Program-made: the position numbers and the translations under genes
The notes under the pieces: generated by a model
What the model was told of the DNA's origin: nothing
The model's database searches: none
The model's input: only the letters and a program-made list of their open reading frames with translations
Assembly (NCBI GenBank): GCA_963716565.1
Contig: OY970318.1
Span: forward strand, 320,830-384,829
Direction: 5' to 3'
DNA length: 64,000 nt
Origin: an uncultured Candidatus Saccharibacteria bacterium
Lineage (GTDB): Bacteria > Patescibacteriota > Saccharimonadia > Saccharimonadales > CAIOMD01
In this document: in pieces, positions 34,537 through 55,816 of the stretch
How positions within the stretch are numbered: the stretch's first letter is position 1
Layout of the letters: each line of letters opens with the position of its first letter

Positions 34537-35570
34537 ATGCCAAAAATAATGCTAGTAGAAGACGATAATAATCTGCGTGAGATTTACGGTGAGCGCTTGG
34601 TTGCCGAAGGTTATGAAATCGTTTCGGCTGCCGATGGCGAAGAAGCCTTAGCGGTTGCCGTTAAAGAAAAACCGGATCTTATCATCGCCGACGTTATGAT
34701 GCCCAAAATTAGTGGCTTTGACATGCTAGATATATTGCGGCAATCCCCCGAAACTAGAGATACCAAGGTAATTATGATGACCGCCCTGAGCCAAGCCGAA
34801 GACAAAAACCGGGCCAGTGCATTAGGCGCCGATAAATACCTAGTAAAATCGCAAGTTACCCTAGAAACGTCGCCAGAGTGGTACACGATTTGCTTTACGG
34901 TGAAGATAGCCAGCCAGATACCTCGCCAACCACAGCCACACCCCAAGTAGCAGCTGCGCCAAGCGATGCATTTAGTTCGCCATCAACAAAAATTAATATT
35001 AACAATTCCTTAGGGAATGAGGACAAAAAGATGGATTTTGACCAACCAAGTACGCCACCAGCAACTAACCCAAACAACGTATCACCGCCAATGCCACCAG
35101 CGCCTGTCTCACCGCCAACGTTCAGTATGGGGCCATCGGTACCGCCAGTTGCAAACCCAGCTCCAGTAGATGCGCCTTCAGCACCAGCCGTACCGCCAGC
35201 ACCAGCACCTATGCCGGCAACACCTCCGGTAGAAAGCGCCGAAAGCGCTGCCCAAGAGACTGACGAAGTTGATGGCCAAATTAAGCAATTCGTAGACAGC
35301 AAGCCGGCCGAAGAACCTCAGCACGTTGCACCCTTAATTGAGCCTTCGCCAACAGCTCCAGCAAGCGACTTGCCGAATAATATAGTTGGGCAAACTATTA
35401 TTCAACCACTACCAGATGACCCAGCTGCTCCCAAGAAAGACATTAACCAGTTATACCAAGAAGAAATGGCCAAAGAAACAACTCCTGTTGAGCCGGCCGA
35501 AAATACCGTTGCCGAAACTACTCCAAACGACAGCAACGAACCAACGCCAACAACACCCGGCAACCTATAA
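34537..35570 (+). pseudogene. response regulator (receiver plus long Pro/Ala-rich tail) interrupted by one apparent 1-nt deletion
   Basis: Frame 1 gives a normal receiver up to YLVKSQVTLE. Frame 3 continues NVARVVHDLLYGED... through a 230-aa tail. Adding one A to the A-run (or one C to the adjacent C-run) within 34858-34867 joins the two frames. Confidence 0.7.
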
Positions 35571-37913: not shown

Positions 37914-38486
37914 ATGCTTATAGTTGGCCTAGGTAACCCCGGTAAAAAATATGATGGCACGCGCCACAACGTGGGTTTTGAAGTATTAGATAAATTCTTA
38001 GAAGCCAACGAGTTTGAGCCCTTTAAAGAAAATAAGAAATTTAGAGGCCTTATTACCGAAAGGGTACTGGGCAGCTGTCGGGTTATCTTATTTAAACCCA
38101 CAACCTATATGAACTTAAGTGGCGAAGCAACCAGACTAGTAGCCGATTACTATAAAATCAACCCAGTTAATTTAATTGCCGTTTATGACGAATTAAGTTT
38201 AGACTTTGGCACAATCCGTAGCCGCGTAGGCGGCCAATCGGCCGGCCATAACGGTGTAAAATCGCTCATTCAGCACTTAAACACCGCCGATTTCGGCCGT
38301 TTAAGAATTGGTATTAATAACGAACTCTCCAAAACCCAAGATTCTAGTGATTTCGTTTTAAAACGCTTCACCAAAGAAGAGCAGACAAAAGTACCAGATA
38401 TTGCCAACGAAGCCTGCACCATGCTCACCGAATTCATCTTCGGCAACAAAATCACCGAAGAAACCCGTCAAATAGATGTTAGATAA
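37914..38486 (+). CDS. pth: peptidyl-tRNA hydrolase
   Basis: MLIVGLGNPGKKYDGTRHNVGF. The ORF is open from 37839, but the canonical N-terminus starts at 37914. Confidence 0.85.
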   Translation: MLIVGLGNPGKKYDGTRHNVGFEVLDKFLEANEFEPFKENKKFRGLITERVLGSCRVILFKPTTYMNLSGEATRLVADYYKINPVNLIAVYDELSLDFGTIRSRVGGQSAGHNGVKSLIQHLNTADFGRLRIGINNELSKTQDSSDFVLKRFTKEEQTKVPDIANEACTMLTEFIFGNKITEETRQIDVR

Positions 38487-38988
38487 TGGACGTTGGATGA
38501 TAGATAAAAACAAATTAAAAAGTACCATTCGGCAAATTGCCAAAGATGCGCAAGCATTAAAAGATGAGTTTGTTAACGAGCAAGAAGCTCAAATAAGTGA
38601 GTGCTGCGTATTTTGTAAGGACAACCGGGAATACAGAGAACTTATTGAGGCGATCTGCCCGACAGGGCGCATCGCCAAAGAAACACCTAGCGGACCAGTT
38701 TACATTGTGCCAGATATAGTAACTAGCGCCGGGTTGGTGCATATTGTAAAAATCCGCCTACCAGACCCAACAAGACTAGAGCGGGGCTACGCTGACTTTA
38801 CTGCTAAAGATTATCAAGCTCTAAAAGAGCATTGCAGCAACAAAGCTGAGTGCAAGGTAATACAACGTGAAGAATTCGAAATGATTGAACTGATGGCAGA
38901 TGGCCACGATGTGCGTATCTATTTTTCTAATCCTCCAGTTACACAACACACTGGCATCCGCGAAGCCCTAGCAAAATATAGTTCTTAA
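38476..38988 (+). CDS. hypothetical protein
   Basis: 170-aa ORF with no motif recognised. The start could be 38497. Confidence 0.45.
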   Translation: MLDNGRWMIDKNKLKSTIRQIAKDAQALKDEFVNEQEAQISECCVFCKDNREYRELIEAICPTGRIAKETPSGPVYIVPDIVTSAGLVHIVKIRLPDPTRLERGYADFTAKDYQALKEHCSNKAECKVIQREEFEMIELMADGHDVRIYFSNPPVTQHTGIREALAKYSS

Positions 38989-39322: not shown

Positions 39323-39619
39323 ACAAAAAGAGCCCACAGAGGGGGTGGGCACCGCTGTAGGCTCATTTCAGCCTTCAACTCCGGGATATATTCCCACGCT
39401 TACATGTTCCACCTCAGTATATATCGAGGAGTCGAGCTTAAGAGTTAAAGGCGTTAGTATGTTTTAGAGCGCCTGTTTGTCTGGCCATCAAAAGCGACTG
39501 AGCTGGCGCAAAGTACGTGGAGGGTAACAACGTAAAATCGCACGCTCTAAAACAATCTAACAAGTGTTAGAATTTATAGTGTAAAGTACTTAAAAACACC
39601 CTTATTAAGTGCTTACAAG
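39323..39619 (-). ncRNA. candidate non-coding transcript of unknown class (about 295 nt)
   Basis: Bounded by a consensus promoter (39654-39626) and an intrinsic terminator (39364-39325). There is no ORF of 60 aa or more on either strand. It contains a 12-bp long-range helix, GUUUUAGAGCGU (39553-39542) paired with GCGCUCUAAAAC (39472-39461), plus several local hairpins. Confidence 0.4.
39325..39364 (-). terminator. intrinsic terminator
   Basis: Minus strand reads GAGCCUACAG-(15 nt)-CUGUGGGCUC followed by UUUUUGU. The stem has one GU pair on the minus strand but a C-A mismatch on the plus strand. Confidence 0.55.
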
Positions 39620-39625
39620 CGACAC

Positions 39626-39654
39626 ATATTAGCAGATCTTAGCTTGTATGTCAA
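39626..39654 (-). promoter_or_regulatory. sigma70-type promoter TTGACA-N17-TAATAT
   Basis: On the minus strand, TTGACA is at 39654-39649 and TAATAT at 39631-39626, with an exact 17-nt spacer. Confidence 0.5.
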
Positions 39655-39674
39655 TAGTATTTTATAATATATAA

Positions 39675-40545
39675 TGCTTATGCTTCATTAACACCCTAAT
39701 AACCCCCTATTTCCAGAAAGAATTATTAAACATCCATCAGCCCCCAAGGGAGCTATTTATAGAGGGCAATTGGGCAAAATTACTGATCAACACCAAAGGT
39801 AGCCGTTATTGGTAGTCGCAAGGTATCTAACTATGGTCGGGTAGTAACCGAACGCCTAGTTCAAACCTTAGTTACTTACGGCATAACAGTAGTTAGCGGG
39901 TTAGCTTTTGGCATTGATTCTATCGCCCATCAAGCGGCCTAGACACTGGCGGCCAAACCATTGCTGTTTTACCAAACGGTTTAGATAGAATTTATCCGGC
40001 TTCGCATACTCAGTTAGCCAAACAGATTGTTAAGCAGGGTGGGGCATTAATTAGCGAATATCCACCCCGTGTCGCAGTCATTTAAAGCTAACTTTATTGC
40101 TCGTAATCGCCTAGTTGCCGGTTTATGCCAAGCAGTTATTAATAACCGAAGCCGGCGAACGTAGTGGCAGCTTACATACCGCCAATTTTGCGCTAGAACA
40201 CGGTAAAGAGGTTTTGGTAGTACCTGGGCCAATTACTAGCCCAACATCAGTTGGTTGCAACAATCTTATTAAAAGCGGTGCAACTATGATTGCCAGCCCG
40301 TCCGATTTGCTAAATGCTCTTAGGACATAAAGTCATCTGACTTAGGCAGTATCTGATATTGTCGCCGCCAACGAGGATGAATACCAAATATTAAAGCTTA
40401 TTAAAGAAGGTGTAAAAGACGGTGAGAGCTTCAACAACAATCTGGCTTATCAGCCATCAAGATTATCTTAGAAGTAATGAGCTTTTTAGAAATTAGTGGT
40501 AAAATTAAAGCCCTAGGTGGCAACCAGTGGGATATTAATAGTAAC
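39675..40545 (+). pseudogene. dprA: DNA processing protein DprA, multiple frameshifts
   Basis: Frame-hopping translation gives HQPPRELFIEGN, VAVIGSRKVSNYG, VVSGLAFGIDSIAHQAA, DTGGQTIAVLPNGLDRIYP and GERSGSLHTANFALEHGKEVLVVPG. At least 4 frame changes are needed. The 3' end is approximate. Confidence 0.75.
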
Positions 40546-40607
40546 TATAATATGCCAATAAATGATATAGTTACTCTTACGTTGTATAATAATGCAAGCT
40601 TATAACC

Positions 40608-42944
40608 ATGACCAGTAAAAAACAACTTAGTTATTGTCGAATCACCAGCCAAAGCCAAAACAATTGGCGGTTTTTTGGGTAAAGATTATATTGTTAAAAG
40701 TAGTTTTGGGCATATTCGAGATTTGCCTAAAAAGGGCTTAAATATTGATATCGAAAATAATTTTAAGCCAAACTACGAAATATCGGCCGATAAGAAAAAG
40801 AGTTGTAAGCGAGCTAAAAAAGATGCTGCTAACTAGCGACATTGTTTGGCTAGCAACTGACGAAGACCGCGAAGGTGAAGCTATTGCTTGGCATTTAAGC
40901 GAAGCTTTAAAACTAAAACCAGCCAACACTAAGCGTATTGTATTCCACGAAATTACCAAAACGGCTATAAAGCAGGCTATTAAACAATCCTCGCGCAAAT
41001 TGATATTGACTTAGTAAATGCCCAGCAGGCTAGACGAGTATTAGACCGTTTAGTGGGTTACGAATTATCGCCAATTTTATGGAAAAAAATTCAGCCTAAA
41101 TTGAGTGCTGGCCGAGTACAATCGGTTGCTGTTCGTTTAATTGTAGAGCGCGAACGCGAAATTAAAGCTTTCGCAATCTAAGAGCAGCTTTAAGGTAACT
41201 GCCTTAATGAAATTTGACAAAGAAGAGTTTAACGCCGAGCTAGATACTGCTTTTAAAGACGAAAAATCGGCCCAAATATTTTTAGAAAATTGTAAAAAAG
41301 CCCATTATCAAGTTAAGATATTACTGCCAAAACCAGGCTCCAAGAAACCCATCGCCGCCATTTACAACTTCTTCATTGCAACAAGAAGCCGCCCGTAAAC
41401 TCGGTTTTAGCGTTAAGCAAACTATGACTTTAGCCCAAAAACTATACGAAAACGGCCATATTACCTATATGCGAACCGATAGTTTAAATCTGTCAAGTTA
41501 GCTCTACAAGCGGCTGCTAAATACATAACCAACTAATTATGGCGCATAAATATCATAAAGAACGTCATTACCAAACCAAAGACAGCTAGGCGCTCAAGAG
41601 GCTCACGAAGCCATCCGACCAACTAATTTATACAATCTTAAGCTGGCGATGATAGCGGCCAGCAAAAGCTTTATAAACTTATATGGCGTCGCACTCTAGC
41701 TAGCCAGATGGCCGCCGCTCAAACCATTAAAACAATCAGTCATCAATAGATATTAGTGGCCAAAAAAATCAGTTTATCGCCAACGGCGAAGTTTTACAGT
41801 TTGATGGTTTTCTTAAAGTTTACGGTGGTGGTAAAGAAGATGCCATTTTGCCAAAATTGACTATTGGGAATAACTCGGAAGCTGTTAGAAATAAGTGCCA
41901 ATCAAACCTTTAGCCGCCCACCAGCCCGATATTCCGAAGCCTCGTTTAGTAAAAAAATTAGAAGAATTAGGTATTGGTCGCCCAAGCACCTACGCACCAA
42001 CTATTAATACTATTCAAAGCCGTGGTTATGTAGAAAAAGGTCGATCTAGAAGGCTCCGAAAGACCGGCTATCAATTCTAACCTTAAAGAATGATCAAATT
42101 ACCAGAGAAGAACTAAACGAGAACATATGGCGCCGACAAGAAAAAGCTATTGCCAACTCATTTGGCCGACATTACCACCGACTTTTTAAATAAAGTACTT
42201 TTCGACAAGATTATCGAAAACGGTTTTACGGCCGAAGTCGAAAAACAGTTAGACCAAATAGCCGAAGGCCAAATTGTTTGGCAAGATATAATTAAAAATT
42301 TTTATAAGCATTTTCACCCCTTAATTGGCAAGGCCAACAAAGCTAGCCGCCAAGAAACTTCACAGGCTAGATTGCTAGGTATTAGATCCTAATAGATGTC
42401 AACCAATTTATGCCCGTTTTGGCCGCTACGGACCAATGCTACAAAAAGGCGAAGCTATTAAAGATAGCAAAGATAAACCAATTTTTGCACCCATGCCAGC
42501 CAAGATTGCACCATAGAGAATGTTAGCTTAGACGAAGCCTTAAAGATGTTCGACTACCACCGCGATAGTAGGCAAGACGACCGACGGACAGGTAATTACT
42601 GCTAATATTGGCCGTTTTGGACCATACATCCAAATTGATAAAGAGTTTGTATCTATTAAACCACTTGATCCATTTACTATCACCGAAGAAGAAGCTAGGG
42701 AAATGTATCAAAGAAAACTCGAGTCTATTGCCGAAAGACTACATTAAACAGTTCGAAGGCAGTAAAATTCAGATACTAAAAGGACCTTATGGACCATATG
42801 TAACCGACGGGCAAAAAAAATGCGCGCATACCAAAAACATCAGATCCTGCCAAAATCACTCTTTCAGAGGCCGAAGAATTGCTAGCCAAACAGCAAACCT
42901 CGCGTAAAAAACGCTTTACTCGAAAACGCCAGTTAACTTCTTAA
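40608..42944 (+). pseudogene. topA: DNA topoisomerase I, many frameshifts
   Basis: TATAAT box at about 40585. Fragments readable across frames include [62 protein letters not shown] and QEAHEAIRPT. By my reading, 10 or more frame changes are needed. Confidence 0.85.
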
Positions 42945-43048
42945 TAAGATACTTGCCAAAACGCTTATGCTATTATTTGATAGCTTTTCAAACTTTATTT
43001 ATGCATGTGTGTCTATTTTGTGCTACAATAATCAATGAAAACATATTG

Positions 43049-43077
43049 TTGACTTACAATTTGTTTTGTTGTATTAT
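43049..43077 (+). promoter_or_regulatory. sigma70-type promoter TTGACT-N17-TATTAT
   Basis: TTGACT at 43049-43054 and TATTAT at 43072-43077. A GAAGGAG RBS and ATG (43127) lie downstream. Confidence 0.5.
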
Positions 43078-43126
43078 ATTAGCAATCTAGTTTATAAACT
43101 ACAGATACACTGCAGAAGGAGAATAG

Positions 43127-44194
43127 ATGATGGCTGAACAGCGCTAAAGCAACTAACACAACTTCGCTGTCGACTTAGATAGCACCCTTAAAAGGGTGTT
43201 TTAAATGCTATTGAACGCGAAAGAGAACGCGAAATTATTTCGCGTCGTTTTGGTTTGTACGACCGAAAAGAAACTCTTAGAACAAATTGGCGAATTGTTA
43301 AGCATTACCCGCGAACGCGTACGCCAGTTAGAAAAAGCTACTATTTTGCGTCTTAAAAGCTGCCAGCTAACAATGGCCAGTTAAGCGAAATGAAAGACTT
43401 TTGAAAAACAAGTTATTGGTATTTTATCCAAAGAATAATAACATTTAATGCGATTACCGAATTGGCCGCCATAATGACCAAGCAGGGCAATCAAGATCGA
43501 CCAATCCAGAATCTTCTTTTTAAGCGAATTATCACCAAACATTACTGTTATCGAAGAAAGCGATCATTTTTACAACGCCATCGGTGTTAGGTCTATCCAT
43601 GACGAAAAGAAAATACGGAATTAACCAATAAGATTGTTGACACTATTAAAAAAATTGGCCACCCAGCCAACATAGATACGAAGTCGCTAAAGAGGCTGGA
43701 TGAACAAAGACGCACAGCACAGATTGCCGCTTTAGCTAAAACTTCTAAGCATTAGCTGAATTAAACGGCCAATGGGGACTTAATTAAGTGGCCAATGGTC
43801 AACCCTAAGAATATCCGCGATAAAATATATGTTATTTTGCACGAAAAGGGCAGTCATATGCACTTTAACGAAATTGCCAGCGCTATCCGTAAGTCTGACT
43901 TTAAGCGCAAGGATGTTACTACTCAAGCTATACATAATGAGCTTATTAAAGATACTCGCTTTGTTCTAATTGGTCGAGGCATTTACGCTTTAGAAGAGTG
44001 GGGCTACAAGCAGGGAACTGTGGCCGATGTAATCGCCGAAGTACTTACACGAAGCTAAAGAACCATTACATCGCGATGAAATTGTTAAAATAGTTCTAAA
44101 GACCCGCCATGTTAAAGAAACGACTGTTTTACTCAACTTGCAAGGCAAAAACCGCTTTAAGCGAGTTGCCAAAGCAACTTACACGCTGGCTTAA
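43127..44194 (+). pseudogene. sigma-70 region-4 / HARE-HTH domain protein, several frameshifts
   Basis: Fragments are ISRRFGLYDRKETLEQIGELLSITRERVRQLEKATILRLK (region 4) and IYVILHEKGSHMHFNEIASAI...GRGIYALEEWGY (HARE-HTH-like). The reading is broken repeatedly. Confidence 0.6.
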
Positions 44195-44278
44195 AGTTTA
44201 ACTTCTTAAAGACACTTCTTCTATTATAACCTCTAAAAGAGCTGTATAATATAGCTATTGTTAAAGCATAACCAAAAC

Positions 44279-46809
44279 ATGACAGATAGCCCAACTAACT
44301 CGAATTCCACCCTACTGCTATTAGAAATACCTCGCACTAACGATAAAAAAGAGTTAGCAGCCGAACAGATGTTTGCTGCCTTGCATGGTATTTTAAAACC
44401 GCGCGGCGGCAGCTGGCGCACTGCTTATAATTATCAAGATCATATTAGTTTCGAGATTGCCTCTATTGGCCAACGAATTCGTTTTTATGTTTGGCTACCA
44501 AAACATCTGCAATCTTTTGTCGAGGGCCAAATTTATGCTCAATATCCAACGGCCCAGATTTCGGAAGTAGACGAAGATTATTCTAATCGATCCATGCCAC
44601 AAGCGGTTATCTGTTCGTACCGAACTAACTCTTACCGATAACGAAACAATCCCTATAAAAACCTTCGTTAGCTTCGAAGTTGACCCCTTAGCGGCCATTA
44701 CGGCTACCTTAGCCAAACTAGAACAAGCCAACGAAGAGATGTGGGTACAAGTTATTGTACGACCCATAGGCGATGATTGGCATCAAACGTAGCTCTAAGA
44801 TGATAAGTCGTATTAAACAGGGTAAGAGCAGTTGGTCTAGCCCTGGTGTTGCTTGGCTAGGTTATTTTGGTCAAGTCGCTGGCGCCTTAATTAAACCCCC
44901 CGAAGCTACAGCGCAGCTAGCGCCAGCCCACGAAATTAGTGAACGAGATAAAACTCGCATAACCGCCATAGAAGAAAAGAGTCGAAAGCTTGGCTACCAA
45001 GTTAAAGTACGTATTTTATACGCTGGTAATGACGCAACAACTGCTCGCTTAAGAATGCAAGCCATGGTTGGTACTTTTAAACAGTTTAACACTACTAATT
45101 TAAATGGCTTTCAGTCGTAAATCTTAGTTTTGATGCTTCAAAACTAGCCGATTATACCACCCGCTCATTTTTAGACAAGGGTTTATATCTTAAATATTGA
45201 AGAGCTTAGCTAGCTTATATCACTTACCACATACCAGCGTCGAAACGCCCAATATCGTTTGGGCAACCACTAAAACTTCCGAACCACCAGCTACATTACC
45301 AGCCTATGGTCAAGCATCCCGAAAACGCAATTAGTCTATTTGGTACTACTAATTTTAGGGGTACCAATACCATGTTTGGTATGCTTAGAGCCGATCGCGG
45401 ACGTCATGTTTACATTATTGGCCAAACCGGAACAGGTAAGTCTGGGTCTGTTAGAACTTCTGACTTTATCTGATATTTATTACAACCAAGGCTTTGCCGT
45501 TATTGATCCTCATGGCGATTATGCTACTCACATTTTGCAATATATACCCAGCTACGACGTATTAAAGACGTAATTTACTTTAATCCTGCCGACACCGAGC
45601 ATCCTATTGGTTTTAACCCACTAGAAAAAACCGATTCGGCCAGCAAGGGCCAGATAAGTAGCGAGTTAGTTGGAGTTTTAAAGCGAATGTTTGATAGCTG
45701 GGGGCCACGCTTAGAATATATCTTAAGATTTACCCTTTTAGCGCTAATAGATTACCCAAACTCCACCATGCTAGACATTAACCGAATGCTAACCGAAAAG
45801 AAATTTCGCGACGATGTAATTAAGTATCTTGACGACCCTATTGTAAGTAACTTCTGGACAACCGAATTTGCCAGCTGGAACGAAAAGTTCGCCTCTGAAG
45901 CCGTAGCCCCGGTATTAAATAAAGTAGGCGCCTTTACGGCCAACCCAATTATCCGCAATATAGTTGGCCAACCAAAAAGCACCTTTAATATTCGTAAAAT
46001 TATGGACGAAGGTAAAATTTTAGTCGTTAATTTGTCTAGGGGTTTAATAGGGGAAGACAACGCTGCTATTTTAGGTTCCATGATTGTTACAAAAATTCAG
46101 TTAGCGGCCATGAGCAGGGCAGATATACCCCGCCTAGAAGATCGACGACCATTTTATTTATACGTTGACGAGTTTCAAAACTTCGCCACCGAAAGTTTTG
46201 CCGTTATTTTAAGTGAAGCTCGAAAATACGGCCTTAATTTAACAGTTGCTAATCAGTATATTTCCCAAATGGAAGAACATGTGCGCGGAGCAGTGTTTGG
46301 TAATGTTGGCACTATGGTATCTTTTAGGGTTAGCCCAGATGATAGCCCATTTTTGAGTAAATATTTTGAACCACAGTTTGAAGCTGCCGATTTATCTAAT
46401 TTCCATAATCGCTTATTTGTAGCTAGTATGAGTATTAGTGGCGAAAAGGCTGTAGCTTTTTCGGGCACAACATTAAACATTCCTAAACCCCAAGTCGATT
46501 CTAATGCCGAAATTATCGAACATTCTCGCCAAAATTATCAGCGCCGATAAGTCGCTAGTTGAAGCAGCTATTAAGGCGTCAAATTCGAGCCAATCTAAGG
46601 TTGCCTCCGATATCACGGTAAAAAACAGCTCACCCTTACCGAACAGCCAGCAAAACCGTACATCTAACGACGGGCATCTCCGTAAGATACCAAAAATACC
46701 TTTATCGGCCATTACTGACGACCATGCTGACAATAGCAACAGCGGTTCTAAACTAAGCGAATCCCAAAAACGTCGCCAGCGGCGCAAACGAGCGGCATCT
46801 AAGCAGTAG
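44279..46809 (+). pseudogene. TraD/VirD4-like (type IV coupling protein family) P-loop ATPase, several frameshifts
   Basis: Walker A GQTGTGKS, Walker B-like FYLYVDEFQNF, and SEARKYGLNLTVANQY. The ORF pieces 44258-44641, 44773-45120, 45340-45573, 45687-46550 and 46504-46809 join into one protein only by changing frame. Confidence 0.7.
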
Positions 46810-46824
46810 TCCGCCAAAGCTGAT

Positions 46825-46837
46825 CAAAATACGAACA
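46825..46837 (+). repeat. 13-mer CAAAATACGAACA, copy 1
   Basis: Exact copy, 16 bp after the stop of the T4CP-like gene. Confidence 0.8.
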
Positions 46838-46887
46838 ACATAAAAAGGCATACTGTGGCTTGTGTGGGTTAATTTATATAATCTAAA

Positions 46888-46900
46888 CAAAATACGAACA
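46888..46900 (+). repeat. 13-mer CAAAATACGAACA, copy 2
   Basis: Exact copy. Its 3' end is part of the palindrome GAACA-CGCA-TGTTC. Confidence 0.8.
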
Positions 46901-46918
46901 CGCATGTTCATAAATTAT

Positions 46919-47104
46919 TTAGCCAGTAGCAAACGTGCAAAAACCCAGCATGCTTAGCCCAGCACAGCAGAGCAGTATATAAAACGCTAAACCAAAAAAT
47001 AAAAACAAACCAAAATTAATGATTGCCACATATAAAAAGCAAAAGTAGGGGCCATAGCTTTGCATAGATACCATGTCGCACAATATACCTTTTACGACTC
47101 TCAT
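46919..47104 (-). CDS. possible small hydrophobic peptide (61 aa)
   Basis: ORF with two hydrophobic helices, followed on the minus strand by GAACAUGCGUGUUC plus a U-rich tail. No Shine-Dalgarno is visible, so it may be spurious. Confidence 0.2.
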   Translation of the reverse strand: MRVVKGILCDMVSMQSYGPYFCFLYVAIINFGLFLFFGLAFYILLCCAGLSMLGFCTFATG

Positions 47105-47418
47105 ATATCTATTTAACTTGAAATGGAGTGCATCCCCACAACGGGGGATATTCTTAAGTTTATCTGTAATTGCTTAACCATCCACTGCTACTCAGGTACC
47201 TACCACAATTTAATATACTTATATGCCTAAGCCCCAGGCCAACCAATACACCCATCAATCTATATAGTTATCCACAGCCATTTGCATTTTACGTCATTGT
47301 AGTATGTGCTTATATATATCTCACCCTTCCCGACCTAAAAATGCTATATTTGCATATTTGTTAAATATGATGTGTGGTATAGTTTTTTTGATTTAGCAAC
47401 AATTAAAAACTATATGTA

Positions 47419-47431
47419 CAAAATACGAACA
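47419..47431 (+). repeat. 13-mer CAAAATACGAACA, copy 3
   Basis: Exact copy in the same orientation, 24 bp beyond the ftsQ stop codon. Confidence 0.8.
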
Positions 47432-47454
47432 TCGGGGCAATGCAGGTGACGGCT

Positions 47455-48366
47455 CTATTGGTAATAAACTTTATCGGCCAAACGAACATCAATATAGCTT
47501 GATGGGACTTGGCCAATTTCGGCTAGCTTTTTTTCGGCTGCCCTTAAGGCTCCAAATTGAGTAATAATCTGCTCGTTGAGCAGGTACCTAACCTTATATC
47601 CCCTGCCCGACTCCGACGCTAACAGTTCGTGCGGCGAAACCGTTAGGGCAAATATTGTAACCGCATTTTCTGCTTTATATTGGTTGTGCAGCTGCATAAA
47701 AGCCATCGCATCATCTGGACTCAAAAACTGCTCACCCTCAACGCCCTCTATGCCAGTATCGTTTTGTAACAGTGGCAGGGTGCTTATATCTAACCCCGGC
47801 GATTGGTCAGTCTTGAGCAATACTTTGCCCCTATCACTAATAATCCGATTAGTTTGCCCATTTTGAGCAAACACTGCCATTGGTGAATAGGTATGAATTT
47901 CCGCGACCGGCGAATGCCCTATTAAAGAACTAGTTATTTCGATTGTCTGAGCTTCGGGTAGCAATTGGTACAAAGACTGTTCCAGCTGATCACTCTTGAG
48001 TGTTAATTTAGAATGATTTTGCCAGCTCTTGCCCAGCTCTTTCTCGATAATGTCTTGATATTGAGCTATGGTGCGGTAGGCAGAACCATCAATTTTAACT
48101 ACAGGTGTTGCTCCTAGGCTAAACAGATAACCCGCCATAATTAAAGCCGCCAAAACAATTGTTAACCAAAACCACCACTTCTTAACAAACGCTAGATGCT
48201 TTGAACTTCGCTTGCTGGTATTGGATATATCTGAACGCCTAAAGTTATCCAGCTGCCGCCGGCTAGCAGTGTAATAAGAAACTACTCTGTGTTGCGGATG
48301 TGAAGCCGGTGAACGTCTAGCAATATTATTCGCAAGTCTTGGTTTACGCTTCTTTATGCCAAACAC
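47455..48366 (-). CDS. ftsQ: cell division protein FtsQ/DivIB-like
   Basis: Position after murG in the dcw cluster; basic N-terminus, one TM helix and a POTRA-like ectodomain. Intact. Confidence 0.7.
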   Translation of the reverse strand: MFGIKKRKPRLANNIARRSPASHPQHRVVSYYTASRRQLDNFRRSDISNTSKRSSKHLAFVKKWWFWLTIVLAALIMAGYLFSLGATPVVKIDGSAYRTIAQYQDIIEKELGKSWQNHSKLTLKSDQLEQSLYQLLPEAQTIEITSSLIGHSPVAEIHTYSPMAVFAQNGQTNRIISDRGKVLLKTDQSPGLDISTLPLLQNDTGIEGVEGEQFLSPDDAMAFMQLHNQYKAENAVTIFALTVSPHELLASESGRGYKVRYLLNEQIITQFGALRAAEKKLAEIGQVPSSYIDVRLADKVYYQ

Positions 48367-48369
48367 TTT

Positions 48370-49535
48370 TTACTTAACTACCCTTTCAATAACGTCAACA
48401 ATTCTTGAAGCAGAGTCAGATACGGCTAATTGATGCAAGTTTTGGCTAATTTTTTGACGATAGTTTATGTCTGCAAACATTAAATCAACCGCCCCGATTA
48501 AGGCTTCCCCACCTTCTTGTAGCTGGCTTTCTGGTATTACAATCCCCGCTTCTATCGATTCTATTAAAGCCGCATTTTTGGTTTGATGGCCACTCGTTAG
48601 AAGCGGATTAGGCACAAAGATAATTGGCTTACTCAAGGCAGCCAGTTCGGCAATAACCGTTGCCCCTGCCCTAGAAATGACTATATCACTAGTAGCCATA
48701 TAGGCCTGAACGTCAGATACAAAACTAAATACGTGCACTCTAGAATCTTTCAATTTTAAACTTTTAAGCTGTTGCTCAATCTTAGAATATTGATGCGCCC
48801 CAGTTATCCAAATTAACTGCCGACGATTGTTGCCGAGAAATTCGTTTAGGCAGCCGTTAATAGCATTATTTAATCGCATAGCCCCCAAGCTGCCGCCAAT
48901 AACTAAAACTAGCTGATCGCTGGGCTTTATGTCTAAGCGAATGCCGAATATCGGCAAGTTTTACATTAGTTTTAGTGAAAAATTCCGGCCTGAATTGGAA
49001 CACCAGTAAAATGAGTCTTTTGTACAGAATAGAAGTTTTTATACACTTCAAGGGGCATGCCGACCGCTATAGCCTTAGCAAAACGAGCCAAGACTCGATT
49101 AGTCAAGCCTGGCACAACATCGGAATCGTGAGTAACGATTTTTATACGTAATATTGCCGCTGCCAACCCCACTGGCAAGCCCACATAACCACCTTTTACA
49201 AAGACAATATTTGGGCGCCAAAAAATCATTATTGCCAGACTCTGAATAAAGCCAACTTTTAAATAAATGATATCTCGAAGATTTTTAGCAAACGTCTTTA
49301 CATCCTTAGCATGCTGCCAAAAACCTATACCATTATAACGCCGCCACTTGCCGGCAAATATTTTATAGCACTGTTCAACATAAGCATTGTCGGCCACCAA
49401 TTGATTCATGGCGTCACCACGCTGGCCAATATATCTGATTATGGCTTGGGGGTGACGCTTTTTAACCTCTTCGGCGATAGCTAGTAGCGGCGTGATGTGT
49501 CCGGCGGTGCCGCCACCGGTAATAAGTAGCTTCAT
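48370..49535 (-). pseudogene. murG: MurG glycosyltransferase, two apparent frameshifts near 48.95-49.02 kb
   Basis: The N-terminal half is MKLLITGGGTAGHITP... (in ORF 48972-49754). The linker RPEFFTKTNVKLADI is in a third frame (ORF 48866-49051). The C-terminal half is LVLVIGGSLGAMRLN... (ORF 48370-48957). Confidence 0.8.
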
Positions 49536-50725
49536 TACTCTCCCCTTTCGTTGCTTGAATTTATTAAGCTCTTCCTCATTACGGTATAGCCTGGATATTA
49601 GAAAAACTACACCCAGTGCCATCATGGCAAATATTAAGCTTGTACCACCAGCGCTTATAAATGGCAGGGTTATACCCTTTAGCGGCAATAGACCAATCAT
49701 AGCACTAACATTAACTATCAGTCTGTATTGCAAACCAGCCAAAGACACCTGCACATATTAGTTGAGTGACCCGATTCGGTGCTCTTTGCATGACATTTAA
49801 TATTCTTAACAATAAAATTCCATACAAGACTAGCAAACACTACTAACACCTATAAAACCAAATTTTTCGGCATAGATTGCAAATATTGAGTCATTGGCTG
49901 CTTTTGGCAGATAGCCATACGCCTGGACGCTGCGCCCTAGGCCCATTCCAAACAGACCGCCACTACCAACCGCAATTAAGGCCTGGCAGGCATGATAGCC
50001 GGTACTAATACAATCTCTTTCGGGTTGGAAGAAGGTAGCTAATCGATCTCGTCGATAACTTGTACTGCTAATGGCTACAAAACTATCATCAACACAACCA
50101 AGCCCAGAAAACATTAATAATTTTTTCATAGGTAGACCGGCAACATAAGCCATAATCCCAAGCATTAAACATAATACAAGGCTGAGCCTAAATCTCGTTG
50201 TAAGCCCAACTATAATTACACTAAATAATAGCCATTAAGTAATCACCAACGGCTTAAAGGCTCTTGGATTTTAGCAGCTCGACCTGTATGAACAATGTTG
50301 CTCAAAAAGAACGCTCCATAAATAACCAACACAAACTTTACTAATTCCACCGGCTGAAACGAAAAAGCTCCTATTTGAATCCATCTGTTAGAAAGACCCC
50401 CTAAAATAATAGTTAATAACACTTAGTATAAAGGCAATTGCCAACATGCGGTATTTGCAATTTTTCCCAGGTTTCTAATTTAATTCTAGAGAACACAAAA
50501 AATAGTGCTACACCTAGTATGGCGGCAATAAATTGACGACTAACATAATAATTTTCGCTCACTCCACCACCTAAACCAGCTAAGGCCGGACTGATGGCAT
50601 ACATTACAATTAGATCCAATACCCAGTAAGATGCTCGCAATTACTAAAATACCATAATCTGGTCGATGCTTACGCACCGAAATGTTAGCTAAAAGAGATT
50701 GCCGCCGCCAGGCGGGTTCATACAA
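49535..50725 (-). pseudogene. ftsW: FtsW/RodA-family (SEDS) protein, several frameshifts
   Basis: Fragments include RKHRPDYGILVIASILLGIG and GLLPLKGITLPFISAGGTSLIF. The last fragment reads through into murG in the listed ORF. The expected stop is the TAATG overlap at 49537-49533. Confidence 0.75.
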
Positions 50726-51764
50726 ACCCTCCAGTTACCGCTAACAGTAACCAATGACGGCACAAACTTGCCCAATTACCCAAAAACGCATTGTGACTTT
50801 TGTTTCTGGCCAACCTTTTGCTTCAAAATGATGATGAATTGGTGAAATTAAGAATATCTTTTTACCGTTGTCTTAATTTTTTAGAAATATTCTGCATAAT
50901 CACCGAGCCGGTATCAACTCACAAAAACTAAACCTATAATAGGCAGTAAAATTAGCGTATCTGTAATCATCGCCACCACGCCTAGAGCAGTACCTAAAGC
51001 AAAACTACCTATATCACCCATAAAGAATCTAGCTGGAAAAATATTAAACCAAATATAGGCTAACAGAGAACCAACGATTGTAAAACAAAAAGCTGCTACT
51101 CCGTATCGTTGTTGCATAATTGCAATTAGGGTATAGGCTGCAAAAGCCGTAGACAGCTAAACCACCAGCTAAACCATCTAAGCCCATCCGAAATATTAAC
51201 GGCATTGGCAGTTGCTACTACCACAAATACAAAAACGGAATAATTAGCCAGCCAATTGCAATCATTGGCCCACTGCCTGGTAAATGAAAAGAATCTACGC
51301 CTAACTTGGCATAAAACCACCAGCCACCAATTAAGGCTACACCGCTTATTAGTAAAAGTTTGATTTTTGATCTTAGCCCAGCTATACCAGTACCGTCGCC
51401 CCTAATATTAATAATGTCATCTATTAAACCAACTAATCCAGCGCCAACCATGGCGGCTAACGGTAACCAAGTTTGTTCACGACTTAAATTTAAACTAGGC
51501 AGTTACAATAGCTACGGCCATAACAATAATAATTCCAGCCATAGTTGGAATATGGCGACGATGTTTTGCAGCATGTAGTTTTTGAAGCATTACTGCCTTT
51601 TTACCTGCTACATCTGTAGTTCTAGGCCGCTTCCACCACTGTCTTTTATAGGCAATATAAGTATACAAAGGCGTAATTAAAATACTCAACGCAAAACCCA
51701 AGAATGCCAATAGTAAAATATGCTCTAAGGTTGATGTTTCTATCGACAGATTGATGTTCGACAT
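50718..51764 (-). pseudogene. mraY: phospho-N-acetylmuramoyl-pentapeptide transferase MraY, several frameshifts
   Basis: Fragments include GLIDDIINIRG, ANAVNISDGL, FMGDIGSFALGTALGVVA and [14 protein letters not shown], spread over 4 or more frames. Confidence 0.8.
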
Positions 51765-51839: not shown

Positions 51840-53657
51840 CTAGCTTGATGGGATAGCAAAATTATCAATAAATTGGCTAACTAGCTCAGCCCAAACTTTG
51901 CAGGCTTCATAGCTAGCCAAATTACCAGTTTTTGGTTCATCAAGCCTGAGCATCATAATGTATTTAATATCCCCGCTAGCTCCGGCAATATAACCAATAT
52001 AAGTACCATTATATAAATTTTGTTTATAGCCACCAAGGCCATCGGCAACTTGGGCAGTACCACTCTTACCACCCAAAATATAGCCAGCTCTAATTGCCCA
52101 AGGATAGTTGTACTCTAAGGCGTTTTTAGTCATTTCTTTTACCCAATTACTAGCTGTGGCCGAAACAATACCGCTAGCTTTTACGATCCCCTGCTGCGTA
52201 GTTAGGCCACCGCTTTCGTCAGTACTAGCAATTAAGGTCGGTTGATAATAAGTGCCACCATTTACAACAGCGTTAAATGCTCCCACGAGTTGGATTGGGG
52301 TTATGCTGAACCCCTGCCCAAAGGCCATATTGGCATAGTTAACGTTTAGACCATACCCTTCGTTGGGTGGATTAATGTAACCAGTAGTTTCACCAGTTTG
52401 TTCAATGCCGGTGATTTCGTCAAACAAATAATGATTGGTCAGGTAGTTATACCATGTAGATCTAGCCTGTTCATTAATTTCGCCACCACCAAAGGTTTTT
52501 AAGACATACACCGCACCGGTGTTTAATGAATAGTTGATTATATCCCTAGGTGTCATCATTCGAGCACCATAAGAAAACACATTTGTTATCGTACTGTCAT
52601 CCACCTGAACATAGCCCGGTTCCCAATATTGGGTATCGGGCGTAATGGTGCCTGCGGTAAAAGCTGCGCCCATTAGAAGCGGCTTTACAACCGAACCTGG
52701 CTCCCACACATTAGTGACTATTGGATTTTTAAAGATATCTATGTCACTGATTTTATCGAATTGGCTTGGATCATAACCCGGATAGTTGGCCATAGCTTTA
52801 ATAGCACCGGTTTTAGAATCCATTATTATAGCATTGCCCCTAATCGCTAGCGTTCTATCAACTCCACTTTTTAATACATCTTCTGCTAATTTTTGCATAC
52901 CCAAATCAATAGTTAAAGTAATGTCCTTACCGGAAGTTGGTTGTTGTAAGATATTGTCATTGCTTACAGCTAGCGGTATGCCCCTAACATCAGTAACAGC
53001 CTTTTCTAGGCCGGGCTTCCCAGATAATTCTTCGTTCATATAGCCCTCTATGCCGTACTGTCCTGCACCGTCATCATTCACGAACCCAAGCACTTGAGCC
53101 GCTAAGCTACCCTGCGGGTACGTCCTGATATGAGTCTCTTTTTTTCCTATGCCGCTAAGCTCTAAGGCTTCAATTTGATCAGCTTGCTCTTTTGTAAACT
53201 TTTTTGCCAAGACTTCGTAGCGGCTATCGGCTGCTGATAATTTTTCAATAAGAGCGTTTTTTTCGCCCCCAATTATGCTAATTAATTTATCAGCCGTAGC
53301 TTCGGGGTCCTTAATATAACCCGGATCGGCATAGATTGTATAGCGCTCCTCGTTCAGGACAACCGGTACCGTTTGATTGCCATCCGTCATCCTTATAATG
53401 CCCCTAGGGGCGGCAATCTCAAATTTTTTAGTATGTTCGGCTAAGGCTTGGGCCTCATAATAATCATGTCTAATAATCTGAATATAAAAAAGGCGCCCGA
53501 TTAAAATAGCGCCAAACGCCAACAATAACACTCTTAGAACCTGAATGTGGTTTACCCTAGTCTTTGGCGGGTCATAATAACGATTATTACTGTAATTCAC
53601 GGGTCCCCGTTTTAAAACATTGTTAGTCGGTGGCAAAAGCCGTAGGCTTAGTTTCAT
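51840..53657 (-). CDS. ftsI: penicillin-binding protein 3-like transpeptidase
   Basis: TM helix; SVVKP (SxxK), SLN (SxN), KSGTA (KTG-like). Intact. Confidence 0.85.
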   Translation of the reverse strand: MKLSLRLLPPTNNVLKRGPVNYSNNRYYDPPKTRVNHIQVLRVLLLAFGAILIGRLFYIQIIRHDYYEAQALAEHTKKFEIAAPRGIIRMTDGNQTVPVVLNEERYTIYADPGYIKDPEATADKLISIIGGEKNALIEKLSAADSRYEVLAKKFTKEQADQIEALELSGIGKKETHIRTYPQGSLAAQVLGFVNDDGAGQYGIEGYMNEELSGKPGLEKAVTDVRGIPLAVSNDNILQQPTSGKDITLTIDLGMQKLAEDVLKSGVDRTLAIRGNAIIMDSKTGAIKAMANYPGYDPSQFDKISDIDIFKNPIVTNVWEPGSVVKPLLMGAAFTAGTITPDTQYWEPGYVQVDDSTITNVFSYGARMMTPRDIINYSLNTGAVYVLKTFGGGEINEQARSTWYNYLTNHYLFDEITGIEQTGETTGYINPPNEGYGLNVNYANMAFGQGFSITPIQLVGAFNAVVNGGTYYQPTLIASTDESGGLTTQQGIVKASGIVSATASNWVKEMTKNALEYNYPWAIRAGYILGGKSGTAQVADGLGGYKQNLYNGTYIGYIAGASGDIKYIMMLRLDEPKTGNLASYEACKVWAELVSQFIDNFAIPSS

Positions 53658-54994: not shown

Positions 54995-55299
54995 ATTTGT
55001 TTTTGTGTTTATTTTTGCAAGGTCACCGATTCAGCAGCCAACTTTTTGTTTTTTTGATAGTTTTTGTTTTTGATTTGGTAGCGTCTAATCGTTGAAATTC
55101 AAATGCGAATTTGAAAAATTTGCTTAATGTTCAACTGACTACTACCTAAGTTTTGAGAGACTTATGTGTGAGGTGGAGTTTTGGGAGGTGTTTTGTTAGA
55201 CAAAGTACGAGGATTTTTAGCGTAGATTCCTAAAGCTACGTGTTGACTGCCGAATCGCTAATCTCGAGTCGGTCTTTTTTAAGTTGTTAAAGAGCCTTC

Positions 55300-55659: not shown

Positions 55660-55694
55660 TTGTTCTTACAGTGGTTTTTGTTTGTCTGTGGCGT

Positions 55695-55742
55695 TACCCA
55701 CATTTACCCACTGCATTGAGCATACTACCCACTCGTACCCAC
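55695..55742 (-). promoter_or_regulatory. four phased GTGGGTA boxes (putative MraZ operator)
   Basis: TACCCAC occurs on the plus strand at 55695, 55705, 55726 and 55736, giving spacings of 10, 21 and 10 bp. The boxes lie 36-83 bp upstream of the mraZ ATG. Boxes 2 and 4 are extended to TACCCACTGCA. Confidence 0.5.
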
Positions 55743-55816
55743 TGCAAGAAGCTTTTTTACAATCTTGACTAAACTGTCCCCCACTTATCCACAATTCGTT
55801 CGCTAATTTTTCGTAT

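Follow-up and report, generated by a model that had tools for sequence, protein, structure and literature searches.

A block of conserved genes broken by small indels, located within a stretch of 64,000 nucleotides analysed as a whole (the window), is very probably a sequence-quality artefact of the deposited 799,209-bp Saccharibacteria contig and not an outcome of gene decay, as judged from the pattern of the indels. Frameshift-aware protein-to-DNA alignment against intact orthologues from syntenic Saccharibacteria contigs (L003, L004, L007, and L012) retrieved approximately 70 frame-breaking events between positions 39,680 and 51,497, all of 1 - 2 nt. Conserved genes broken by single-base indels had been described in a sequence-only reading of this DNA, which was confirmed but had understated their extent; its shift counts per gene are correct lower bounds, since the total reaches approximately 70. 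The event density (approximately 70 in 11.8 kb versus one in the checkable parts of the remaining 52 kb) represents a clustering far beyond chance. Stop-free stretches of at least 100 amino acids covered 0 - 31% of each kb at 39 - 44 kb and 16 - 23% at 50 - 52 kb, versus 90 - 100% of nearly every kb in the rest of the window. Flanking genes were aligned to orthologues from approximately 33 to 56 kb; farther out, the assessment comprised the continuity of ORFs and a small number of suspicious adjacent pairs. The flanking der, pth, PBP, ftsL, rsmH, and mraZ genes were intact. The sole event detected outside the block was the isolated shift already noticed at 34.86 kb, namely a 1-nt deletion (34,868, forward strand; GAA-ACG where relatives show GAAGAC, reading TLE[D]VARVVHDL), which divides a response-regulator gene into ORFs 34,537 - 34,950 and 34,878 - 35,570. 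The ORF pairs at 10.3 - 11.3, 25.0 - 26.1, and 61.5 - 62.6 kb were rejected as further split genes, because no single domain spans both members of a pair.

On the forward strand, dprA (39,680 - 40,605; six to eight small indels) aligned to residues 11 - 278 of the 285 residues of L003 DprA with 57.6% identity and five shifts, located at 39,786 (+1), 39,938 (-1), 40,071 (+1), 40,138 (+1), and 40,425 (-1). Its conserved ATG at 39,680 is out of frame with the gene body, which adds one event at the start, and two apparent stops (40,330 and 40,345) are compatible with a close, probable pair of compensating indels. The topA gene, coding for a type IA topoisomerase (40,608 - 42,944; approximately 22 small indels), aligned over its full length (residues 3 - 763) to three relatives with 20 - 21 shifts, in addition to one more within the A6 run following the ATG, and, once frame-corrected, shared 83.5% identity with L007/P0001. 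Two hand reconstructions made from the letters alone held upon alignment, namely the -1 event of dprA at approximately 39,938 (AA[L]DTGG) and the topA start, where the A6 run puts the ATG at 40,608 out of frame with the codons that follow. The sigma-70 region 4/HARE-HTH gene (43,131 - 44,194; 11 - 12 small indels), the Pfam families of which were taken from its orthologues, was 73% identical to the 351-aa orthologues of L003 and L004, with 11 - 12 shifts. The gene for a DUF8128/DUF87/TrwB-type ATPase ('T4CP-like'; 44,279 - 46,809; nine small indels) displayed 78 - 83% identity to the orthologues of L003, L004, and L012, with eight shifts within 44,618 - 45,554 and one at 46,539; its Pfam matches to TraG-D_C and TrwB_AAD_bind were found on a 287-aa fragment.

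On the reverse strand, the ftsQ-like gene (47,455 - 48,366) is intact in the middle of the block, as had been claimed, with zero shifts relative to L003, L004, and L012 (42 - 60% identity, near full length). The murG gene (48,370 - 49,535) is broken by two one-base insertions (at approximately 48,919 - 48,937 and 48,989 - 48,992 according to three references), its N-terminal and C-terminal Glyco_transf_28 Pfam domains being encoded by separate ORFs. For ftsW (49,462 - 50,721; 13 - 15 small indels), 10 - 13 shifts were found across references, besides a probable compensating pair with which a single apparent stop (50,235) is compatible; the alignment to its closest relative, L012, comprised residues 1 - 412 of 414, with 75.8% identity and 13 shifts. 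Similarly, mraY (50,718 - 51,764; seven small indels) displayed seven shifts, the positions of which were the same or within 3 nt across L003, L004, and L012, and the corrected MraY was 85.5% identical to that of L012.

Apart from these indels, the genes of the block are full length and conserved. The alignments span 94 - 100% of each orthologue, no gene lacks a segment, and the orthologue alignments revealed no deletions larger than 1 - 2 nt in the block genes. No unambiguous nonsense codons were found either, as each of the three in-frame stops lies within 18 - 30 nt that are readable in a neighbouring frame; the earlier statement that clear in-frame nonsense mutations and large deletions are lacking was upheld accordingly. 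The corrected TopA mismatched at one of 260 columns with a conservation of at least 97% among 120 homologues, with three more mismatches beside a shift, whereas intact TopA homologues displayed a median of one and a maximum of 10 mismatches at the same near-invariant columns. The corrected MraY mismatched at none of 134 such columns (118 homologues; median of intact homologues 0). Identities to the closest relative were 85.5% (MraY), 83% (ATPase), and 76% (FtsW) inside the block, and 84% (MraZ), 83% (FtsL), 74% (RsmH), and 73% (PBP) outside. Frame-corrected block proteins are shown by these alignments to be as conserved as intact ones, with purifying selection undiminished. In addition, the gene order der-pth-(conserved element)-(dprA)-topA-HARE-HTH-ATPase, converging on ftsQ-murG-ftsW-mraY-PBP, is common to L003, L004, and L012, in which all genes of this order are intact; dprA is present in L003 and missing from L004. 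Overwhelmingly 1 - 2-nt indels with few substitutions, in genes that are otherwise full length, conserved, and in their native synteny, are a picture expected of long-read errors. The gene-poor region at 39.0 - 39.7 kb was considered as a damaged gene and rejected, since it largely consists of a conserved non-coding element.

Insertions dominated the indel spectrum. Approximately 47 events are +1, 8 - 10 are +2, and 10 - 12 are -1, corresponding to approximately 55 - 57 insertions versus 10 - 12 deletions (roughly 5:1). In the 6 nt around an event, the longest run averaged 2.97 nt, versus 3.2 nt at random positions, indicating no homopolymer enrichment. Indeed, for 29 of the 65 mapped events, all runs within this distance are at most 2 nt long, and long runs in the block are limited to one A8 and one C6. 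A specific base or run could be assigned to 15 of the +1 events, of which 10 consist of a singleton base and five fall in 2-nt runs; the extra bases are mixed (seven T, four C, and four A). Homopolymer-driven errors or slippage were rejected on these context statistics, and the A6 run at the topA start, from which homopolymer-type errors might be presumed, is an exception. The homopolymer-concentrated spectrum of nanopore, 454, or Ion-type data was not found. The block differs from the usual nanopore homopolymer problem by its insertion bias and its lack of a homopolymer link, which therefore points to a PacBio-CLR-like or consensus-building origin. A spectrum of the PacBio CLR type, with insertions exceeding deletions, deletions exceeding substitutions, and random positions, was indeed recovered. 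Published PacBio CLR errors comprise approximately 8% insertions, 3% deletions, and 1 - 2% substitutions, uniform along reads, and a residual error of 0.5 - 1.6% after consensus correction, with insertions dominant (PMC7671305); the block profile agrees with these values. The error profile resembles that of corrected PacBio CLR reads, the insertion bias alone pointing to this platform.

The events are confined to two dense patches with sharp borders, patch A (39,680 - 45,554; approximately one event per 125 bp), the left border of which lies between 38,988 and 39,690, and patch B (48,919 - 51,497; approximately one event per 115 - 135 bp), directly past which the PBP gene (51,840 - 53,657) is intact. 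Together, they total approximately 8.5 kb with a residual error of approximately 0.8% per base. Their G+C content is only slightly lower, and no repeats or inverted repeats that could have caused a mis-assembly were found at the block borders. The 3.4-kb stretch in between (45,555 - 48,918), which holds the convergent strand switch, is cleaner than any other part of the block, with a single event at 46,539; at the rate of the flanking patches, at most one event in its approximately 2.7 kb of checkable coding sequence would have a probability of approximately 2e-8 (own calculation). A replication terminus at approximately 47 kb, with the lowest coverage at the strand switch, had been raised as a possibility for this region. 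However, the cumulative GC skew decreases monotonically over the whole window without inflection, and the clean strand-switch stretch contradicts the idea of lowest coverage at the terminus, so that the proposal was rejected.

According to the explanation favoured here, the regions at 39.68 - 45.55 kb and 48.92 - 51.50 kb would carry leftover single-molecule errors, mostly random one-base insertions, breaking each gene that they cross, and the consensus of the intervening 3.4 kb and the flanks would be of normal quality. Most probably, the two regions would derive from a long-read consensus that had low depth or was left unpolished; sequence used to bridge or fill a gap, or a region out of reach of the polishing reads, may have been its source. 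The sequence-only reading had likewise favoured uncorrected long-read indel errors over decay, and this part of its interpretation stands, given the occurrence of small indels only, the insertion bias, the lack of unambiguous nonsense, the retained invariant residues, and the sharp borders; the homopolymer type of the errors, the link with the terminus, and a second copy are not supported. A comparable pattern could result from an artefact of polishing or of a mixed-strain consensus. That the artefact was made differently, through mixed-strain polishing or consensus, mis-mapped reads, or a nanopore-only stretch missed by short-read polishing, is possible but rather unlikely. Strain mixtures are frequent in metagenome-derived genomes, non-homopolymer and insertion-biased events confined to patches would agree with such an origin, and the isolated event at 34,868 might represent a low background of the same kind. 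However, the affected genes belong to the conserved core and are not obviously strain-variable, and no mixed alleles are identifiable from the sequence. A nanopore origin would furthermore bring homopolymer errors and near-balanced indels and substitutions, as described in PMC7671305 and PMC9262707, unlike the block.

It is very unlikely that the genes are true pseudogenes or that their frames are rescued. In natural pseudogene decay, as in Mycobacterium leprae, Sodalis, and Rickettsia, the targets are scattered, nonsense as well as missense substitutions occur, and indels are biased towards deletions, with larger ones among them. The block shares with these cases the frameshifted conserved genes in a small-genome symbiont lineage, but none of the hallmarks of decay (nonsense, missense, deletion bias, larger deletions, or scatter) was seen. 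A very recent pseudogene cluster, the functions of which would be provided by the host, another replicon, or intact paralogues, is highly improbable, although Saccharibacteria are reduced epibionts and the deposited sequence does carry the indels. Indeed, approximately 70 indels are accompanied by essentially no substitutions or nonsense codons; their insertion bias runs contrary to bacterial mutation, which is deletion-biased; they are associated with neither homopolymers nor repeats; and they form sharp patches in a conserved syntenic core, with ftsQ and the flanks intact and with all seven genes intact and conserved in relatives. Relaxed selection was not apparent (one of 260 conserved columns in TopA, none of 134 in MraY, and no unambiguous nonsense), nor was a deletion-biased spectrum with larger deletions at repeats or homopolymers, an intact copy elsewhere, or a dispensable function. 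In a collection that includes the proteins of the deposited genome, no protein of the 799,209-bp contig occurred among the best 120 TopA or MraY matches, which argues against intact paralogues and makes the second intact copy that had been envisaged elsewhere unlikely; within the window, no second copy was found.

Real indels with reading frames restored during expression, whether through slippage in transcription or translation or through RNA editing of the insertion/deletion type, are hardly conceivable. Transcriptional slippage in Buchnera and Blochmannia acts at long A/T homopolymers, at one site per gene. The block recalls this poly(A) slippage rescue in its apparent frameshifts in essential genes of a reduced genome, but differs from it in that most sites lie in non-repetitive sequence, with up to 22 per gene. 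The perfectly conserved corrected frames would fit a restoration, yet they are equally expected of an artefact. Slippage requires long homopolymers or slippery tracts, of which the block has only the A8 and the C6 mentioned, and the events far from any run and the singleton insertions argue against it as well; the slippage rescue suggested earlier is excluded by these sequence contexts. Neither was a slippery site found at each shift, with few shifts per gene, as programmed frameshifting would demand: as many as 22 corrections in a single gene would be required for proteins that are uninterrupted in relatives. RNA editing would act on one kind of base by rule, whereas the extra bases mix T, C, and A without a uniform rule, and deletions and 2-nt insertions occur too. 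That the approximately 70 indels are truly in the population DNA, in a cell without its own topoisomerase I, MraY, FtsW, MurG, and DprA or with an unknown RNA- or protein-level frame correction, is accordingly extremely improbable. If the indels were real, it would be remarkable for these essential genes to be jointly lost or rescued, but the evidence gives this only a very slight chance.

The genes of the block are almost certainly intact in the organism, and the block then has no biological importance. Its relevance is that of a data-quality flag, as approximately 8.5 kb of a publicly deposited, apparently closed Saccharibacteria genome of 799 kb carry approximately 0.8% indel error, which would falsely make topA, mraY, ftsW, murG, dprA, the sigma-4/HARE-HTH gene, and a conserved ATPase gene look like pseudogenes or fragment proteins. 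Fragment ORFs such as 45,687 - 46,550, 48,370 - 48,957, and 51,495 - 51,764 are present as exact proteins on the 799,209-bp NCBI/ENA contig, alongside intact flanking proteins, and the indels therefore stand in the public record. Such fragments, already in protein databases, could lead to wrong conclusions on gene loss, metabolic capacity, or completeness in CPR bacteria. No DNA of the same species was found in the collections searched (best amino acid identities of 83.5% for TopA and 85.5% for MraY), and a scan of genome and metagenome contigs for FtsQ retrieved only relatives at 45 - 46% identity. The cluster mates of the window proteins (L008, L009, L010, and L011) were only 66 - 89% identical at the DNA level; the closest usable relatives, L007 and L012, displayed 76 - 86% amino acid identity for the genes with better conservation, namely those for TopA, MraY, FtsW, and the ATPase.

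Indel errors that fragment genes in assemblies of long reads were reportedly described by Watson and Warr in 2019. As in the block, small indels in long-read assemblies cut conserved genes into short ORFs, indels dominate with few substitutions, and the proteins can be restored via relatives (Kastor paper, PMC12007338; Dohm et al. 2020, PMC7671305). Such errors are, however, spread genome-wide, whereas those of the block occur only in the two patches of an otherwise clean contig. A related Saccharibacteria contig (L010; ENA ERZ25039503 contig_89277) has the same gene order, and its topA, HARE-HTH, ATPase, ftsW, and PBP genes were also called as fragments. In this case, fragmentation extends along the whole 20 kb fetched, including the histidine kinase, pth, and PBP genes that are intact in the window, indicating a uniformly low consensus quality rather than a patch. 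This contig documents that such a failure also occurs in a public assembly of the long-read style.

Frameshift-aware alignment of the block at 39675-51764 revealed approximately 70 frame-breaking events between 39,680 and 51,497. A custom protein-to-DNA alignment permitting +1, +2, and -1 frame changes was used, with the orthologues on four Saccharibacteria contigs (L003, L004, L007, and L012) as references, between which the event counts agreed closely. Five events were found in dprA, 20-21 in topA, 11-12 in the HARE-HTH gene, nine in the ATPase gene, two in murG, ten in ftsW (13 with the closest reference), and seven in mraY. The sequence-only reading had described these genes as shredded, which is right, its numbers of shifts being lower bounds. 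In addition, the conserved start codons of dprA (ATG at 39680) and topA (ATG at 40608, followed by an A6 run that had been noticed before) are out of frame with the gene bodies, representing one extra event each. For three apparent in-frame stops (40330, 40345, and 50235), each within a short stretch readable in an adjacent frame, closely spaced indel pairs that compensate each other are the best explanation. Stretches of 100 or more amino acids without a stop covered 0-31% of each kb at 39-44 kb and 16-23% at 50-52 kb, compared with 90-100% per kb almost everywhere else in the window. As had been claimed, ftsQ contained no events and the flanks were intact (der, pth, the PBP gene, ftsL, rsmH, and mraZ), except for one shift near 34.86 kb. 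Indeed, the only event among the flanking genes with a reference was the loss of 1 nt at 34,868 from a response-regulator gene (34537-35570; GAA-ACG versus GAAGAC in relatives), which separates the receiver domain of a 430-aa-class response regulator from the remainder. This deletion is of the same type as the block events but solitary, and is probably a background consensus error.

The window originates from a Saccharibacteria (TM7, Patescibacteria) chromosome. A search with a hand-stitched TopA retrieved hundreds of intact Saccharibacteria TopA proteins, and the contigs of the best matches (L003, L004-L006, and L007) share the gene order of the window, namely der, pth, a conserved non-coding element, dprA (present in L003, missing from L004-L006), topA, a sigma-70-region-4/HARE-HTH gene, and a DUF8128/DUF87/TrwB ATPase gene. 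In the window and these relatives, the rightward genes converge on an ftsQ-like gene, murG, ftsW, mraY, and a PBP gene. All block genes are uninterrupted in these relatives. The closest one (JGI sample 3300064063; L007 and the 17-kb contig L012) also carries unbroken mraZ, rsmH, ftsL, PBP, mraY, ftsW, murG, ftsQ, and convergent ATPase genes. The shared order and the intact genes in relatives indicate that the block occupies its native, conserved position. Exact matches in a public protein collection were found for eight of the ten intact window proteins tested and for six of the ten block fragment ORFs tested (for example 45687-46550, 48370-48957, and 51495-51764), all of them mapping to one NCBI/ENA contig of 799,209 bp. 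Thus, the frameshifts are part of the deposited record.

The events were concentrated in two dense patches, at 39,680-45,554 (approximately one event per 125 bp) and 48,919-51,497 (approximately one per 115-135 bp), separated by a clean 3.4-kb stretch, in which the sole event (46,539) is backed by a conserved C-terminal LSESQKRR.RRKRAA motif. If events were as frequent there as in the flanking patches, the approximately 2.7 kb of checkable coding sequence in this stretch would hold no more than one event with a probability of about 2e-8, as we calculated. Borders are sharply defined, with 1.8 kb of clean PBP gene starting 340 bp past the last event, and no repeats were found at them. It had been suggested that errors would peak at a low-coverage replication terminus near the strand switch at about 47 kb. 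This is unsupported, since cumulative GC skew has no turning point at the switch and the switch itself sits inside the clean stretch.

All events measured 1-2 nt and comprised approximately 47 one-base insertions, 8-10 events acting as two-base insertions, and 10-12 one-base deletions. Each alignment spanned 94-100% of the orthologue, indicating that no gene had lost a segment. Comparison of run lengths with random block positions revealed no association of the events with homopolymers; within 6 nt of an event, the longest run averaged 2.97 nt, versus 3.2 nt at random positions, and for 29 of the 65 mapped events nearby runs were no longer than a dinucleotide. When each candidate base was deleted in turn and the result scored against the references, 15 of the +1 events could be assigned to one particular base or run, encompassing ten singleton bases and five 2-nt runs, with T (7), C (4), or A (4) as the extra base. 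Long runs in the block were limited to one A8 and one C6.

Natural bacterial pseudogenes carry more substitutions than indels and more deletions than insertions. With such a spectrum, 70 indels should be accompanied by hundreds of substitutions, many replacements of invariant residues, and several nonsense codons; none of the kind expected from decay were found in the frame-corrected block genes, so real decay is rejected, whatever its duration. Indeed, TopA after frame correction shares 83.5% identity with its closest relative and differs at one of the 260 columns with at least 97% conservation across 120 homologues, plus three residues directly beside an imprecisely placed shift, intact homologues differing at a median of one and a maximum of ten. 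Similarly, no difference was found at 134 such columns of MraY after frame correction (median 0 and maximum 7 for 118 intact homologues). Block genes are as similar to the closest relative (MraY 85.5%, ATPase 83%, FtsW 76%) as genes outside the block (MraZ 84%, FtsL 83%, RsmH 74%, PBP 73%). Recent pseudogenisation would need an insertion-biased, indel-only, non-slippage mutational burst limited to two patches of core genes, besides an intact second copy. Such a copy, a search for which had been proposed, was not encountered, as no protein of the 799,209-bp contig was among the best 120 TopA or MraY matches, although the proteins of this genome are in the collection. Non-repetitive contexts and the number of sites, up to 22 per gene, exclude the rescue of real indels by slippage, which had been considered in the sequence-only reading. 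Restoration of the frames by editing is ruled out because the extra bases are of mixed identity. That the indels are present in the DNA of the organism is very improbable.

The block is very probably not a real biological feature but an assembly or polishing artefact, in line with the indel errors favoured initially, given small, position-random, insertion-biased indels in two patches without a detectable excess of substitutions. Two stretches of an otherwise good contig, with approximately 0.8% indels per base, would be uncorrected single-molecule consensus. Their source may be PacBio-like bridging sequence of low depth, a region that polishing skipped, or a consensus built from mixed strains. 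Raw PacBio CLR reads contain approximately 8% insertions, 3% deletions, and 1-2% substitutions, uniformly distributed, and consensus correction leaves 0.5-1.6% of mainly insertion errors (PMC7671305). Nanopore errors are described as more balanced and prone to homopolymers (PMC7671305; PMC9262707). Such errors are known to split genes (PMC12007338). Similar fragmentation occurs in the public related contig L010 (ENA ERZ25039503 contig_89277), but along its full 20.5-kb locus. Gene calling split nearly every gene of L010 into several pieces (histidine kinase, pth, topA, ATPase, ftsW, and PBP), and the contig looks like an unpolished long-read assembly. The finding serves as a warning on the public genome record and on the fragment proteins passed to databases.

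The conserved non-coding element of approximately 365 nt (39323-39687, + strand) lies between pth, or the ORF that follows it, and dprA, with counterparts in L004 (6350-6694), L010 (6377-6740), and L003 (7953-8350). It is 82-85% identical to those of L004-L006 and L010 and approximately 73% to that of L003, while the adjoining coding DNA is only 65-72% identical in L010, the sole relative compared at the DNA level. An Rfam search yielded nothing, even with the cutoff relaxed to E<=1, nor was a tmRNA called. RNAalifold on four sequences predicted 71 pairs, seven of them with compensatory changes, as in the GAGCCUACAG...CUGUAGGCUC hairpin, and G-U pairs favour the + strand. The element, possibly a so far undescribed structured RNA of Saccharibacteria, ends with a promoter-like TTGTCA...TATAAT immediately before the start of dprA/topA. 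Between pth and the element, a 170-aa ORF (38476-38988, + strand) without a Pfam match has no gene called at the matching position in the syntenic L003 and L004, and may represent an insertion specific to the lineage. The sigma-70-region-4/HARE-HTH gene and the 850-aa DUF8128/DUF87/TrwB-type ATPase gene (43131-46809) form an adjacent pair kept 3' of topA in all Saccharibacteria loci fetched, L003, L004, L005, and L006 included. Finally, the DNA 5' of mraZ and rsmH (55660-55790 and 54995-55040, - strand) is conserved with L012 at a level mimicking coding sequence; the gene calls of L012 run into it, where the window carries a stop. Rather than marking N-terminal truncations, this DNA is probably a conserved leader or regulatory part of the dcw cluster.
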